DNA of 10,330 nt from the UHGV virus genome UHGV-1624697; one strand, written 5' to 3'. This stretch comes from a virus. Shown one piece after another: positions 1 to 7,953 of the stretch (positions are counted from its first letter, which is position 1; each line of letters starts with the position of its first letter). Under the pieces are notes generated by a model. The model worked only from the letters and a program-made list of their open reading frames with translations. It ran no database searches and was not told where the DNA came from. The position numbers and the translations under genes are program-made.

Positions 1-30
1 CGTGGGCTCGGAGATGTGTATAAGAGACAG
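1..30 (+). other. Synthetic sequence: Illumina Nextera read-2 adapter tail ending in the 19-bp Tn5 mosaic end (AGATGTGTATAAGAGACAG at 12-30)
   Basis: Positions 1-30 (CGTGGGCTCGGAGATGTGTATAAGAGACAG) match the 3' 30 nt of the Nextera transposase read-2 adapter as I recall it. It sits at the extreme window edge with no IS50/Tn5 interior following. Confidence 0.9.
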
Positions 31-605
31 TGGCAGATGCGAAATTATTTATTGGCGGTACGCCGAACCCGAACTACCCGAACTGTAATGGCGCGTATGA
101 GTTTGCTGAACCTCATGCGCGTCGTATCGCGTTCGAATATGCGAACGGGTATTTCACGCTGGGCTGGCCGTTGCAACCATCCGAAAAGAATTACCAGTTT
201 CAGGAACTGATGAATGCAGAAACCGGATTGAACGACCACATCATGATGTATGTTGTACCGGAACAGCATTTACTGACTGGTGTTCTGTTTGAAGTACTGG
301 AAGGTGATGCGCGTATGGCAGGTGCAGCATTACGTCCAAGTGGCATGTTGTATGACCATACGACGAAGCAATACACACCTGATACGGTGCTGGATAAGTT
401 GTTTACCAATACGGCAATTACTGCGCCATTTGAGAAGTATGGGCATCTGGCAGAGCCGTATTATGTGCCGAAGGGTAAAACCCTTGTGTTGACGCTGCGG
501 GTAAACGCGGTGCCGACTGATAAGGATGTGAAGCTGTATACCACAACCGCGAAGGCACAATTGGTAGCTAAGGTTCAGGGCTTCGACGTCCCGACCGAAG
601 TATAA
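30..605 (+). CDS. 5'-truncated CDS, hypothetical structural protein (possibly a capsid-type protein; function not recognised)
   Basis: Open frame from the adapter junction to TAA at 603-605. The track's GTG start at 30 lies in adapter sequence and the in-frame codon before it is a stop inside the adapter, so the real N-terminus is missing. Capsid guess rests only on position at the head of a virion-like operon and the downstream hairpin. Confidence 0.65.
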   Translation: MADAKLFIGGTPNPNYPNCNGAYEFAEPHARRIAFEYANGYFTLGWPLQPSEKNYQFQELMNAETGLNDHIMMYVVPEQHLLTGVLFEVLEGDARMAGAALRPSGMLYDHTTKQYTPDTVLDKLFTNTAITAPFEKYGHLAEPYYVPKGKTLVLTLRVNAVPTDKDVKLYTTTAKAQLVAKVQGFDVPTEV

Positions 606-663: not shown

Positions 664-879
664 ATGAAAAAGATTGGTTTGAACGGTGATGCCACGAAAA
701 CGCCTAAAGGTAAGCCATCCACTAAACTGAAAGCAGGTAAGCTGGCGCATGGTGGTAAAGGCCGTGATGCATCTGCGATTACGAAGCTGAAAGCCGGTAA
801 GCTGGGGTCCACATCCAAAGGTCGTGGTCCAGAGGCCATTACTAAACTTCGTGCTCCTAAAGGTAAGGTAGGAATCTGA
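664..879 (+). CDS. Small lysine-rich basic protein (71 aa) made of ~20-aa tandem repeats (TKLKAGKL...); possible DNA-binding, internal or decoration protein
   Basis: ATG 664 preceded by GGAG at 653-656; stop TGA 877-879. Protein is about 18% Lys plus Gly-rich, with in-frame repeat units at 721-780, 781-840 and a partial unit at 841-876. Confidence 0.6.
   Translation: MKKIGLNGDATKTPKGKPSTKLKAGKLAHGGKGRDASAITKLKAGKLGSTSKGRGPEAITKLRAPKGKVGI
721..876 (+). repeat. In-frame tandem repeat, ~60-nt unit, about 2.6 copies (a degenerate extra partial unit may lie at about 694-720)
   Basis: Unit 1 (721-780) encodes TKLKAGKLAHGGKGRDASAI, unit 2 (781-840) encodes TKLKAGKLGSTSKGRGPEAI, unit 3 (841-876) encodes TKLRAPKGKVGI. 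Units are diverged at the nucleotide level but clearly related. Confidence 0.75.
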
Positions 880-2815: not shown

Positions 2816-4083
2816 ATAAATGCCGCAAGACACCGAAGAATGCGCGATGTGCACCTGAGCCTGTGGAGGCTGTGCCACCGCTATGTGACCCGTTCAGTGT
2901 GTGTCTGTCGTTCGGACGTACGCTGTCGTACGATGGCGCGTGCGTAAGGCTGAACGGACAACCTGTTATCCCGGATGGCTGGTACGGCGAGGTGCATGTT
3001 GTCAACGGTTGTATCGTTGATGCGCGGGAAGCCCCGGTGCCGCTGTATACCCCGCCGCCGTGTGCCCCGGCAGCGACTCCATGTGGCGAGGGTGGCGGTG
3101 AAGGCGGCGTTACGTTGTCACCTGATGCAGCTAACCTGAGTCGGCTTATCGGTAATCAACTGATGACGAAGTTGTATCTGGGGCAGAATGAGGGCGTCAC
3201 TGTCACGGGTGATGGCACGCAGAATAACCCGCTAACAATTCGTCTAGTCGCCGGAGATGGCGACGGTATTTTCATGACGTCTGGTTCGCCGGATGCACTG
3301 ACTATTTCGGGTAGTGGTGAACAGGCAGACCCATTTATCCTGAAACTGACTAACAGTCCGTTAGGTGCAGGGACGTTCGGGGCACTGGAACTGGACAGTC
3401 TTGGCAGAGTTGTCGGGTATAATGAGGATGCCGGGGGTGACGCCCTGCGGCAGCTTATCGATGGTAACGGTACTAAGGGTGTCACTGTCGGGCCGGGTGT
3501 TGGCCGTATAGACCTGGAAGAAGTGGAGGGCGTTAAGGGTAGTTACACAATGGGTGGCTACTCGTTATCTGTGGATGATACCGGACGTGTGGAGGGTGTG
3601 AAGCGCGGCATCACACTGACTGCTGGCACATACACGCTGGGTAATTACAGAGTGACGATTAATGCCTATGGGTCCATCACTAAGCTGGAGAAGGTTACTG
3701 TTCCGGTAGAGCCGAATGTGTTTGTCGCGCAATACGCAGCAGGAGAGCCAAGTCAGGCTGCTGTGATGAGTTTCACCACGGAAGTACCTGGTCGGCTGCA
3801 TATTGAGTATATCGGGTATCTCGGAACGGCCACCGCACAGACACCGGGACTGGCAGAGAATGTTACAGGAACAGCTATCGCAGTGGACGGGAGTGATGTG
3901 CCGCGTGTACTGACCACGCTGATGCCGTCGGGAACGCCGGGAACGATGGTCAGCACCGGAGTACGTGGTATCACACCAGGCATTATCCCGGCAGGGCCGC
4001 ATACCGTTGCGGTGCGTGGACCGGAGATTATGGGGCAACATGCCGCAATTCTTAAGTGTACGGTGGTCGGGGTCGGCACATGA
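2812..4083 (+). CDS. Hypothetical virion protein (423 aa): Cys-rich N-terminus (8 Cys in the first ~91 aa) followed by a Gly/Thr/Val-rich beta-rich region; candidate fibre/spike or receptor-binding protein
   Basis: ATG 2812 overlaps the upstream stop (ATGA); stop TGA 4081-4083. Composition and repeated G-x-G/GDG stretches resemble fibre/spike proteins; this is inference, not homology. Confidence 0.75.
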   Translation: MNKCRKTPKNARCAPEPVEAVPPLCDPFSVCLSFGRTLSYDGACVRLNGQPVIPDGWYGEVHVVNGCIVDAREAPVPLYTPPPCAPAATPCGEGGGEGGVTLSPDAANLSRLIGNQLMTKLYLGQNEGVTVTGDGTQNNPLTIRLVAGDGDGIFMTSGSPDALTISGSGEQADPFILKLTNSPLGAGTFGALELDSLGRVVGYNEDAGGDALRQLIDGNGTKGVTVGPGVGRIDLEEVEGVKGSYTMGGYSLSVDDTGRVEGVKRGITLTAGTYTLGNYRVTINAYGSITKLEKVTVPVEPNVFVAQYAAGEPSQAAVMSFTTEVPGRLHIEYIGYLGTATAQTPGLAENVTGTAIAVDGSDVPRVLTTLMPSGTPGTMVSTGVRGITPGIIPAGPHTVAVRGPEIMGQHAAILKCTVVGVGT

Positions 4084-5702
4084 TACTGAAAGGGTTTAAG
4101 GGCATATCACCACGTACGCCGGAGCATATGCTTGGCGAAGGTATGGCGACGGTGGCCCGTGATGTGAATTTGCAGCATGGGACGCTTCGGCCGTGGCGGG
4201 AGCCGCGCTTTGTCACGCAGCTACCGGACACAACACTGACGGTTGAAGCGTATGGTTGTTGTTATTTCGCGTGGGATAGTTGCGTCTCTGTCGCACGATG
4301 GCTGCCGGATGTGCCACGGTTGTACCTGACAGGACGTTCGCCATATCCGGAAGTGGCTGCCATTGGTAAAGACTGTACACTGGACTATGCCAGACTTGGC
4401 GTGCCAGCGCCAGATACCACACCGCTGGTCGCATACATTACGGTACCGGATAAGAATATTGAGACGGCATTCAGGACGTATGTGTTCACGTATGTGAACT
4501 GGTTGTCGGAAGAGAGTGCGCCCAGTTATCCTGGTACAGAACTGGCGGTTAATGACGGGCAGTCTGTGACGGTGTCTGGCTGGGAGGCGCAGCCTGCGGA
4601 ATACCGGGTGCAGAAGGTCCGTATCTACCGGAGGACGACGGGGTTGCGGTCCGGTGCCGAGGAAGAGCAGAATATCATCACGGAATACCTGCTGGTTGAC
4701 GAGATTGATATCACGCAGAAGACCTATGTGGATACCCGTAAGGATATGGACCTGGGCTGGCAGTTACCGACACGTGAGGTCCGGGAGCCTCCTGCGGGGC
4801 TACGGGGGATTCTGGCAATTGACGGTACGTCCGTACTGGCAGGTTTTGTCGGGAACCGTCTGTTGTTCACGAAGAACGGACAGCCGTGGAACTGGCCGCT
4901 GGCGCTTGAGATGACGCTGGATGACAACATCGTTCATATTGCGCAGGATGACGGTAACCTGTTTGTATCCACCACGGGGCGGTCATATGTGGTGGACGCG
5001 TCACTGGTCTGCGATGAGCGCCCGTGTCGTTCCGTGGTACAGGCGGATTATCCGATGCCGGACATAGGATGCGGCTATGCGCATTCCGCAATTATGACGC
5101 CGTTCGGTATGGTATATGCCAGCACCGATGGTCTGGTACTGCTGAACCAGTCGCAGCCTACCCGGCTTCTGACAGAAGGTGTTCTTGCCGCTGATGACTG
5201 GATTAAGCTGCGACCGGAAACCACACGACTGGCATACTATAAGGGTTATCTGTTTTGCGTGACAGATGCAGTGTCGTTTATGTTATTGCTGGACACGCAG
5301 TCATACAGTGTTGCGGCACAGGTTGCTGCAATGAGCACGTTCTCGGATACGCCAGTGGATATGGTGCTTAGTGATTCCGGTGAATTACTGATGCTGGATG
5401 ACGAGGGCAAACTACACCAGTGGAATGCCGGGGATAAACTACGACCATATCTGTGGGTCAGCGGGGTTATCATGACAGGCTTTCAGAGCTGGTTACCTGT
5501 GGCACAGATAGGTGTGGATGGCACGGTTACATACACGATTAAGTCGGGGCCGTATAAAGTGTATTCGCGTCCTGTCGCGCACAACCGTCCGTTCCGCACA
5601 CGGCGATTAATGCGCAATACAGAACACCGCATTATCCTGGAAGGCACGGGCGAGGTACGCTGGTTGCGGCTGGGTGCGACGATGCAGGAAGCGGTTAAGT
5701 GA
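4080..5702 (+). CDS. Hypothetical large virion protein (540 aa)
   Basis: Preferred start ATG 4080 overlaps the upstream stop (ATGA, MILKGFKG...); the track's 4056 start is an upstream extension. Stop TGA 5700-5702. Longest ORF in the window; no motif recognised. Confidence 0.75.
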   Translation: MILKGFKGISPRTPEHMLGEGMATVARDVNLQHGTLRPWREPRFVTQLPDTTLTVEAYGCCYFAWDSCVSVARWLPDVPRLYLTGRSPYPEVAAIGKDCTLDYARLGVPAPDTTPLVAYITVPDKNIETAFRTYVFTYVNWLSEESAPSYPGTELAVNDGQSVTVSGWEAQPAEYRVQKVRIYRRTTGLRSGAEEEQNIITEYLLVDEIDITQKTYVDTRKDMDLGWQLPTREVREPPAGLRGILAIDGTSVLAGFVGNRLLFTKNGQPWNWPLALEMTLDDNIVHIAQDDGNLFVSTTGRSYVVDASLVCDERPCRSVVQADYPMPDIGCGYAHSAIMTPFGMVYASTDGLVLLNQSQPTRLLTEGVLAADDWIKLRPETTRLAYYKGYLFCVTDAVSFMLLLDTQSYSVAAQVAAMSTFSDTPVDMVLSDSGELLMLDDEGKLHQWNAGDKLRPYLWVSGVIMTGFQSWLPVAQIGVDGTVTYTIKSGPYKVYSRPVAHNRPFRTRRLMRNTEHRIILEGTGEVRWLRLGATMQEAVK

Positions 5703-6163: not shown

Positions 6164-6979
6164 ATGGCAGACGAAGAAGAACTCGCACCGGAAGGTGAAG
6201 AAGGCGCAGAGGGCGAAGAAGAGGTTGCGGCAAGCGAGCCGGGAAAAGGTGTGACTGATGACGGCCTCACATGGTCTGCGCGCATTGCGCAGATAGCTGC
6301 TATTGCCGTGGCGGTCATTAACACTAAGGCCGCCATTGATATCGCTAAAAAGCAGGAGAAGATGGCGAAGAAGTACCTGCAAATGGCGAAGGAGCGGCAG
6401 CAGTATTACTACGACGTCTATGTGCCTTGCGAGAATACAGAGATTCAGGAAGCCTGTAGTGCTGAACTGTATGAGATGCACAAGGATGTACAGGTCGGTC
6501 GTGCGAAGGCATCGGTGCGGCATGAACTGACCGGGAAGACGGAACGTGAGTTGCAGTGTATCAGCCGTTACTGTACAGGTAAGCGCGCTGCAATTGTCCG
6601 TGACCGTGAAGTGGAAGAGGCTACGGCGCTGGCGTTGTCTGCGAACTTTGCACGCAGGTATGAAGAGAAGATTAAGGATGCCCGTGACGATACCCGCTGG
6701 GCACGACGGGCAGAAGCCCTGAATCGCGGTCGTGACATTATGGCACGGGCACAGACGTTCAGTGGTTTCGCTATGGGTATGTTCGGGCGTCTCGGGGAGC
6801 AGGCAGCGAATGCCGCAGCGGGGGCAATGGGGTATCTCGGATATTCAATGGAGCGTCGGGAAATGCAGCCACGTGAGCCGTTGAAACGTCCGCAGCGTAT
6901 GGGTATCTCGTATCCGTTACCGTCGCCGGAACTGGAGGTGATACCGCCGAAACCGCAACCTGTTAAAGTTCTTGGCTAA
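6164..6979 (+). CDS. Hypothetical protein (271 aa), paralog A of a tandem pair; highly acidic Glu-rich N-terminus, amphipathic hydrophobic segment, conserved PCE...EACSA and NFARRYEE...RDD.RW.RR...LNRGR blocks
   Basis: ATG 6164 one nt after the upstream stop; stop TAA 6977-6979. By-eye alignment with the next ORF shows several colinear conserved blocks. Confidence 0.8.
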   Translation: MADEEELAPEGEEGAEGEEEVAASEPGKGVTDDGLTWSARIAQIAAIAVAVINTKAAIDIAKKQEKMAKKYLQMAKERQQYYYDVYVPCENTEIQEACSAELYEMHKDVQVGRAKASVRHELTGKTERELQCISRYCTGKRAAIVRDREVEEATALALSANFARRYEEKIKDARDDTRWARRAEALNRGRDIMARAQTFSGFAMGMFGRLGEQAANAAAGAMGYLGYSMERREMQPREPLKRPQRMGISYPLPSPELEVIPPKPQPVKVLG

Positions 6980-6993
6980 GGGAGCGCGACATT

Positions 6994-7953
6994 ATGGCCG
7001 CATGTGCTATGGCGATGGGTAACTGGGATACCGGGATGGTGAAGTCTCAGGAAGTGAAAACGGAATCCATTGAAAAGATTGAGAACTTCCTGGGTATGTC
7101 GAAGAAGAACGGTGGCGAGGATGGCTTCTGGCCCGAGCCGCAGGTCACTGATACCGGGGTAAAAAGTAATGCCAAATGGGCGCGACTTGCGGCAGTTGCT
7201 GTTGCCACGTTTAACACGCTGGCGATGATTGATATTGCCGAAAAACAGCTTGGCATTGCGGAAGACTATTACAAGATGGCACGCCGGGACTGGGACCGTT
7301 TCAGGGAAATCTTCGAACCCTGCGAGCGAAAGGAAGTTGCGGAAGCGTGCAGCGCGCCACTGTATGACCCGAAACATGACCAGCAGGCGGCAGATTATAT
7401 GAACGAGGTTGACCGCACGTTTGGCATGGCAGAACGACGCATTCATGACCTGTACGGACGGTATGGCATATGTCCTGACCCGTCGCTCAATCGTGATGTG
7501 GCGCTGGCGCGGTCACAGGTGGCGGGTGATTCCGGTAACTTCGCATACCGCTATGAAGAGGGGCGTCAGATTGCGCGTGATGATGTTCGCTGGAATCGTC
7601 GACAGCAGGTGCTGAACCGTGGGCGAAACATCCCGACAGATGCTGTCCGGTATGCAGAGGCAGCAGCGGATGCATTTAACAATCAGGGCAAGATGTTAGG
7701 TAATGCCGCACAGGGTGCGATGAAGGCGTTGGGGTATTTTTCAACACGTAATGAGACACGGTATCCGCAGGGGCGGCGTGACCGCCGGAACAGCCCGTAT
7801 CTGGTCGGGCAGCCAGAGAATGGCGTGTTTGGTTTTATTAGTTCTTCACCTGCATATATCGGCGGTGGCGGGGGGATGGAGTCGGTCTGGTATACAGGGC
7901 ATGATTCCATCGGTAGTAATATCGGGTCGCAGAATCCGGGTACGGGGGTGTGA
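6994..7953 (+). CDS. Hypothetical protein (319 aa), paralog B of the tandem pair, with a Gly/Ser-rich C-terminal tail
   Basis: ATG 6994 with AAGGGAG 8 nt upstream; stop TGA 7951-7953. Shares VTD.G, AA.AVA..NT.A.IDIA.KQ, PCE..E..EACSA.LY, NFAYRYEE...ARDDVRW.RR...LNRGR and GNAA.GAM..LGY blocks with the preceding ORF. Confidence 0.8.
   Translation: MAACAMAMGNWDTGMVKSQEVKTESIEKIENFLGMSKKNGGEDGFWPEPQVTDTGVKSNAKWARLAAVAVATFNTLAMIDIAEKQLGIAEDYYKMARRDWDRFREIFEPCERKEVAEACSAPLYDPKHDQQAADYMNEVDRTFGMAERRIHDLYGRYGICPDPSLNRDVALARSQVAGDSGNFAYRYEEGRQIARDDVRWNRRQQVLNRGRNIPTDAVRYAEAAADAFNNQGKMLGNAAQGAMKALGYFSTRNETRYPQGRRDRRNSPYLVGQPENGVFGFISSSPAYIGGGGGMESVWYTGHDSIGSNIGSQNPGTGV

Follow-up and report, generated by a model that had tools for sequence, protein, structure and literature searches.

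g71, a small and very basic protein with an old 20-residue repeat, encoded in the structural module of an uncultured E. coli podophage

Coding status and distribution of g71

Is the short, lysine-rich open reading frame between the capsid and adaptor genes of this podophage a real gene, and if so, what could its product do? The frame, g71, occupies positions 664-879 on the + strand of the window, by which we mean the whole 10,330-nt stretch of DNA analysed. It begins with ATG and encodes a protein of 71 aa and 7.2 kDa with a pI of 11.05 (MKKIGLNGDATKTPKGKPSTKLKAGKLAHGGKGRDASAITKLKAGKLGSTSKGRGPEAITKLRAPKGKVGI). An initial annotation described the product as rich in Lys (about 18%) and Gly. Both enrichments were found, with the Lys figure corrected: Lys makes up 16 of the 71 residues (22.5%), and 18.3% is the share of Gly. 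Only three residues are acidic, and the net charge is +16. The same annotation placed the gene directly after the first structural gene. g71 starts 58 nt past the stop codon of the first ORF of the window (30-605), whose product resembles a cement or decoration protein and not the MCP.

We compared g71 with its orthologues in three relatives sharing about 80% nucleotide identity. The dN/dS ratio was 0.05-0.11 at a dS of 0.9-1.5, indistinguishable from the values for the flanking genes encoding the 191-aa protein, the adaptor and a 423-aa protein. The g71 frame was the only one open in 10/10 loci, and the other frames were broken. A Shine-Dalgarno sequence, GGAG, can be read from the sequence 6 nt 5′ of the ATG (654-657, + strand) and is invariant in a 4-sequence alignment. 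g71 is a genuine gene under purifying selection. The reading of 664-879 as a spurious ORF or a non-coding repeat, to which a short, low-complexity gene annotated nowhere beyond 'hypothetical protein' might lend itself, is already refuted by the low dN/dS at saturating dS and by frame conservation; the conserved ribosome-binding site and start and conservation of g71 down to 40% identity also speak against it, and it retains practically no probability. The same analyses confirm the earlier call of a real ORF for a very basic mini-protein in a phage structural module, and the gene was present at the same position in every related locus recovered.

The family is small. A word-seeded search of 5.8 billion proteins returned three clusters with the single g71 sequence and ten with a profile, and when 1.84 billion representatives were scanned exhaustively with HMMER there were seven matches, one of them doubtful. 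Walking from the 191-aa gene upstream of g71 led to further members, and three loci came from a metagenome scan. A protein identical to g71 is encoded on 111 public contigs, the longest of 62.8 kb, that carry the label E. coli; its annotation is always 'hypothetical protein'. No match was found among INPHARED phages (megablast with the whole window; tblastn with g71 and the 191-aa protein) or in complete RefSeq E. coli genomes (blastn). Scans of IMG/VR with the g71 alignment and with the adaptor gave no relatives, and a GTDB genome scan with the g71 alignment gave none. g71 is a previously unannotated, very narrow family carried by a recurrent, uncultured E. coli podophage of about 60 kb. In draft assemblies labelled E. 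coli, the phage appears as a contig of its own, about 60 kb long, and in no other form; it could be an extrachromosomal or carrier-state phage or have entered the cultures as a contaminant.

Sequence and profile searches of Pfam, PHROGs, NCBIfam and PDB gave no g71 match even at E <= 10. At the same threshold, none of the 10 family members tested matched Pfam, and the family profile had 0 matches among all PDB chain sequences. AlphaFold2 (AF2), run on the family alignment, returned two short, tentative helices at a pLDDT of 57 and a pTM of 0.14. Judging from this model, the isolated protein is probably disordered, or acquires a fold only when bound to a partner.

Gene neighbourhood and the intergenic hairpin

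The window is a podophage structural module, with matches to SU10_adaptor and to an internal virion protein. The 191-aa protein encoded upstream of g71 (30-605, + strand) belongs to phrog_34200, which has no assigned function. Its gene in relatives directly follows that of a 315-aa major head protein (phrog_267). The AF2 model of the 191-aa protein is a beta-sandwich (pTM 0.71), and its best compact Foldseek match was 8h89_J (155 aa) from the capsid of Ralstonia phage GP4 (TM 0.52, rmsd 4.3); 7eel_H from the Pam1 capsid matched as well. Cement proteins of the GP4, Pam1 and phi24B type are folded Ig-like or beta-sandwich trimers (preprint 10.64898/2026.04.10.717836). These structure matches, in which we infer the cement identity of the matched chains, and the position after the MCP gene suggest that the 191-aa protein is a cement or decoration protein. 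Its N-arm (residues 1-39) is highly conserved, yet disordered in the model. In some relatives about 30 aa are inserted near residue 141. An N-arm and an insertion of this kind are typical of a capsid-anchored cement or decoration protein with an exposed loop.

A decoration role had also been offered for g71 itself, whose gene shares the neighbourhood of these cement genes, just after the MCP gene. The cement and decoration trimers are folded, whereas g71 has no confident fold; the role fits the 191-aa protein instead. With that slot filled by a beta-sandwich, and with a hairpin separating g71 from the capsid genes, the decoration option is not supported.

The first 30 nt of the window are a remnant of a Nextera transposase adapter (CGTGGGCTCGGAGATGTGTATAAGAGACAG), so the contig starts at a tagmentation site. 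The adapter has clipped the A from the native ATG of the 191-aa gene, and the ORF therefore reads GTG at 30.

The hairpin lies at 613-647 on the + strand, between the 191-aa gene and g71. It is GC-rich, with 13 bp, the loop CTTATCCCC and an MFE of −28.8 kcal/mol. Across four relatives, all 13 pairs are kept, three of them with compensatory double changes and none broken, and the loop is invariant. Distant clades have at the same position an unrelated GC hairpin followed by TTTTT, which is the canonical shape of a terminator. The cement gene and g71 abut in the L015 lineage, with neither spacer nor hairpin; in every other locus with both flanks, a hairpin separates the two genes. A simple terminator scan did not call the hairpin of the window because its T-run is only 4 long, and an Rfam search of the whole window returned nothing; the case for the element comes from folding and covariation. 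A good T-run is absent in three of four E. coli-clade relatives, so that termination at this hairpin is not assured. The element may be a Tphi-like terminator or may stabilise mRNA. T7 has a terminator after its capsid gene, and the arrangement of cement gene, hairpin and g71 resembles it. A terminator-like hairpin closing the MCP and cement block points to lower expression of g71 and the connector genes than of the genes for the shell proteins.

Downstream, g207 (881-1504, + strand; phrog_31421, function not assigned) starts 1 nt after the g71 stop codon (TGAtATG), and the two genes are probably translationally coupled, as far as this spacing indicates. The g71 stop codon abuts the g207 start in most lineages. 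The gene for an SU10-type adaptor (1504-2196; Pfam PF24175 SU10_adaptor) comes next, so that g207 lies ahead of the adaptor and nozzle genes. The order from cement gene through g71 and g207 to SU10-type adaptor is kept in every locus with both flanks. Further on, the window encodes a protein of the PHROG family 'internal virion protein' (4056-5702), internal/ejection proteins (phrog_511) and the start of a giant ORF (9804-10330) that runs off its end. The corresponding proteins of relatives have 2300-2453 aa and an LPD38 polyvalent-protein domain. In relatives, the genes for a terminase, a portal, the 315-aa major head protein and this giant protein occur in the same order. The giant ORF resembles gp47 of phi24B, proposed to be packaged in the capsid and to act as an ejection protein (preprint 10.64898/2026.04.10.717836). 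The annotated or solved structural modules of two related podophages, Ralstonia phage Cimandef and Stx phage phi24B, have no gene in the g71 slot, indicating that the function is dispensable or done otherwise in those phages. Neither g207 nor the 191-aa protein has sequence similarity to its positional equivalents there.

Two other kinds of repetition were seen in the window. The genes at 6164-6979 and 6994-7953 encode paralogues (39% identity over 232 aa, E 3e-43; both phrog_37635), a tandem duplication among presumed internal or ejection proteins. Tandem Repeats Finder (TRF) also called micro-repeats in frame within structural genes, namely ACTGGT x4.3 and GAAGGCGAA x3.4 (8892-8917 and 6191-6221).

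A 20-residue repeat in the protein

We divided g71 into four parts, all on the + strand. The N-terminal segment (aa 1-18; 664-717) contains the conserved M-x-x-I-G and T-P-K-G-(K/R)-P, with I4, G5, T13, P14 and K15 invariant in the family. It is followed by repeat unit 1 (aa 19-38; 718-777; STKLKAGKLAHGGKGRDASA), repeat unit 2 (aa 39-58; 778-837; ITKLKAGKLGSTSKGRGPEA), in which a weak AF2 helix covers residues 36-45 of the protein, and a partial unit 3 (aa 59-71; 838-876; ITKLRAPKGKVGI). The layout common to the family is M-x-x-I-G, then T-P-K-G-(K/R)-P-S, two full units of the form (S/V/I)-T-x-L-(K/R)-A-G-x-(L/M)-G ... G-(R/T) ..., and a terminal (V/I)-T-x-L-R-A-(P)-K. The 12-nt sequence CCTAAAGGTAAG, encoding PKGK, occurs twice in g71, at 703 and 856.

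When the protein was compared with itself at an offset of 20, 21/51 positions were identical, and 0/5000 composition-preserving shuffles reached this score at any offset from 3 to 39. The same offset ranked first in three distant homologues, and the 20-residue register is held down to 40% identity. The repeat is much weaker in the DNA: a 25-nt core is 88% identical, the two 60-nt units are 62% identical overall, and TRF called no repeat in g71. The 60-nt in-frame tandem repeat that had been reported for this gene is upheld for the protein but weak in the DNA. The reported unit, TKLKAGKL followed by 12 further residues, does recur about 2.6 times; the exact octamer is present twice, and the third copy reads TKLRAPKG. 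The conserved form of the motif is (S/V/I)-T-x-L-(K/R)-A, in three copies 20 residues apart. The C-terminal copy, (V/I)T-x-LRA(P)K, is the most conserved stretch of the family; among 10 sequences T60, L62, R63 and A64 are invariant, and A58 and P65 are nearly so. The linkers between the motifs are basic, rich in Gly, Ser and Thr, and almost devoid of acidic residues.

It had also been proposed that recombination might vary the number of repeats between isolates. Nearly all relatives have about 2.6 units in 65-71 aa, and 15/15 listed members of the cluster to which the g71 of the window belongs have 71 aa and about 2.6 units. The two exceptions by length are a distant member of 76 aa with a complete third unit and one of 53 aa that lacks the N-terminal segment. 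Homologues of 65-67 aa lack the last 5 residues of g71. A 91-aa homologue, P0002, was considered as a form with an extra unit and rejected, since its length comes only from an upstream start call running through the hairpin. Nucleotide identity between units of one genome is 62% in the window and 40-53% in relatives, and orthologous units of close relatives share 72-82%. The units are thus less alike within a genome than between orthologues, indicating that the duplication is old and predates the family. The comparison of units in the window and its relatives gave no sign of ongoing expansion or contraction, and with a copy number close to constant the proposed variation finds no support. We likewise rejected g71 as a variable-number tandem repeat locus of the contingency type, given the low DNA identity between units and the stable copy number.

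The richness in Lys is not a family property. Lys ranges from 8.5 to 22.5% and is 8.5-14% in distant members. The conserved features are a net charge of +9 to +17 and a count of 0-3 acidic residues, and the pI was at least 11 in 14/14 members tabulated. Identity was 56/55/46% for g71, 63/57/47% for the cement-like protein and 55/51/48% for the adaptors. g71 diverges at the pace of these two and more slowly than g207 and g423. Such slow divergence is unusual for a purely electrostatic disordered protein, which argues for specific contacts.

A 761-aa metagenomic protein from outside the window, P0033, was recovered in the exhaustive search with E 3.5e-4. Its tandem repeats, about 17 of 20-22 aa each (TAQAITKIKYYAIGQASETD), can be aligned to the g71 unit without a shift of register (A-x-A-I-T-K-[IL]-K ... 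[IL]-G), and no informative annotation of P0033 was found. Comparison of the two units by hhalign gave a probability of only 7% (P 0.005), and homology is not established. The likeness of the units may reflect convergence or very remote kinship.

Possible roles and related systems

The best reading of these results is that g71 is a clade-specific small virion or virion-assembly protein, polycationic and disordered when alone. What is new in it is the anciently fixed three-motif architecture; small, basic, disordered virion proteins are a known kind of component. An internal or injected protein that contacts DNA, one of the roles suggested at the outset, is still viable and is the most plausible of them.

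Our tentative preference, to which we give somewhat less than an even chance, is that g71 is a putative low-copy internal virion protein, anchored by its motifs and contacting DNA through its basic linkers. On binding, the motifs would become folded and attach the chain to neighbouring or symmetry-related subunits of a structural oligomer, most likely the portal-adaptor-nozzle channel or an internal core. The cationic linkers would touch the packaged DNA or its leading end, and the protein would be present in few copies and probably be expelled at infection, as is gp7.3 of T7. The reading is based on the net positive charge, the lack of a stable fold, the three motifs at a fixed distance from one another, conserved most strongly at the C-terminus, and the position with the connector genes, 3′ of a terminator-like element. 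Specific Thr and hydrophobic positions at a period of 20 point to sequence-specific docking rather than generic DNA condensation. The internal/ejection proteins (phrog_511) and the giant LPD38 protein encoded alongside provide a supporting context. Several results weigh against it: g71 resembles neither gp7.3, gp6.7 nor any PDB chain in sequence, three of four E. coli-clade relatives lack a good T-run at the hairpin and the L015 lineage lacks the spacer altogether, and phi24B and Cimandef do without the gene.

Next in likelihood, though unlikely, is that g71 lines the inner face of the HK97-type shell in many copies. Its motifs would then staple neighbouring capsomer subunits or the region under a cement trimer, with the linkers facing the outer DNA layer. 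The model is gp21 ('Arstotzka') of Staphylococcus phage P68, an inner capsid protein of 55 residues that has almost no secondary structure, is the product of a gene next to that of the major capsid protein and mediates contacts between capsid and DNA (PMC6795507). Like it, g71 is small, basic, largely unstructured and encoded near the capsid and cement genes; it also evolves at the rate of the cement protein, and three motifs would suit a three-fold environment. Against this reading, the gene of a protein made in shell stoichiometry would be expected 5′ of the hairpin with those of the MCP and cement protein, and g71 lies 3′ of it, coupled to g207, a position that argues mildly against such amounts. 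g71 also shows no similarity to any PDB capsid chain, and in the related T=9 phage phi24B the loops of the MCP suffice (preprint 10.64898/2026.04.10.717836).

It is rather unlikely that g71 is an assembly factor not retained in the virion, leaving before or at maturation. As such it could be a chaperone or scaffold that joins g207, the adaptors and the nozzle to DNA-filled heads or, in a variant, a cofactor for packaging or for loading the giant polyvalent protein. Disordered polycations are often assembly chaperones, and the operon position of g71 and its coupling to g207 would fit this role. T7 gp7.3 has also been described as required for assembly rather than present in the mature particle (PMC11784390). 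The evidence does not separate an assembly factor from a retained component, and three strongly conserved motifs suggest a stable multivalent interface.

A more specific proposal, which we consider quite unlikely, makes g71 a single-chain multivalent tether. Its three ancient docking repeats would bind three equivalent subunits, either at a three-fold capsid or cement site or on three neighbours in a 6- or 12-fold ring, and the polycationic linkers would clamp DNA. Under this proposal g71 might be distant kin of 20-aa beta-hairpin-like repeats such as those of P0033. To our knowledge, repeat-encoded matching of one polypeptide to a symmetric partner has not been described for phage particles, and the proposal, if true, would provide a case in which repeats fit a single chain to a symmetric assembly.

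A non-structural function is improbable. Phage small ORFan genes are often accessory, and g71 could in principle act on membranes as a cationic peptide, assist lysis, counter host defence or serve as a regulator, and lie in the late operon by chance. The TKLKAGKL of the window's clade presumably resembles amphipathic cationic peptides such as the designed KLAKLAK and the 'disruptin' of phage phiKT. Yet the cationic face is not conserved, distant homologues having VTGLKAQSLG and STSLKTGNMG, Gly breaks the putative helix, and AF2 confidence is low. We set the lysis peptide aside, since relatives do not keep the amphipathic Lys face and the gene occupies one fixed place in the structural module throughout the clade, outside any lysis or early region.

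Very unlikely, finally, is a generic condenser of the H1 or protamine type, packaged in bulk with the genome and making no specific protein contacts. The very positive charge, low hydrophobicity and predicted disorder of g71 would be in keeping with it, and the initial annotation had seen a resemblance to the basic repeats of histone H1 and Pseudomonas AlgP. High Lys content and low complexity are indeed shared with histone H1 tails and AlgP, though by the window's copy only. Those proteins have units of 4-6 aa of the KPAA, AKKA or SPKK type, whereas the g71 unit has 20 aa and keeps certain hydrophobic and Thr positions; short KPAA/AKKA-type repeats were absent from the g71 sequence, and no profile match of the H1 or AlgP type was obtained. 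Since Lys is not conserved while specific Thr, Leu, Ala and Gly positions are, the likeness does not hold for the family. The rate of divergence, equal to that of folded structural proteins, and the location after the terminator-like hairpin, which speaks against bulk amounts, also weigh against a condenser.

Small disordered virion proteins are routinely missed: they are annotated as 'hypothetical', destroyed by trypsin and averaged out in symmetrised cryo-EM maps. In T7, such small proteins secure the end of the DNA and direct tail assembly and ejection. The three-motif design of g71 provides concrete residues for mutation and for a search of density maps. Were g71 absent from the virion, it would be one more lineage-specific ORFan.

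For the preferred reading of g71 as a low-copy internal protein, the most instructive comparison is with T7 gp7.3, a protein of 99 aa present in six copies and ejected at infection (PMC11784390). The first 83 residues, basic and disordered, enclose the end of the DNA, and neighbouring subunits of the nozzle anchor the C-terminal loop where they meet the adaptor (PMC11784390). A structure is also available for gp6.7, another small ejected virion protein of T7 (PMC11784390), whose composition, like that of gp7.3, is of a similar kind to that of g71. Both gp7.3 and g71 are small, basic, mostly unstructured podophage proteins (99 vs 71 aa), rich in Lys and Gly, with 16% Lys and a net charge of +10 in gp7.3 and 22.5% and +16 in g71. 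The anchor of gp7.3 is C-terminal, and the best-conserved motif of g71 is likewise C-terminal, in a protein encoded with the connector genes. Unlike g71, gp7.3 is acidic in its middle segment and lacks a period of 20 aa, and the genes of gp7.3 and gp6.7 lie upstream of the portal gene, whereas g71 lies between the capsid and adaptor genes. BLASTP gave no match of g71 to T7 gp7.3 or gp6.7, and the family HMM scored 0.8 bits against gp7.3. P68 gp21 differs from g71 in having no internal repeat, and g71 is parted from the capsid genes by the cement gene and the hairpin; the family profile, empty against PDB chains, gave no homology to gp21.

By function, T7 gp7.3 and P68 gp21 would be the closest analogues of g71, as an analogy of mechanism and not of family membership, and T7 gp6.7 and P68 gp21 may serve as alternative models. 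If g71 is a protein of the channel or the DNA end, the principle of gp7.3 would extend to an unrelated podophage lineage.
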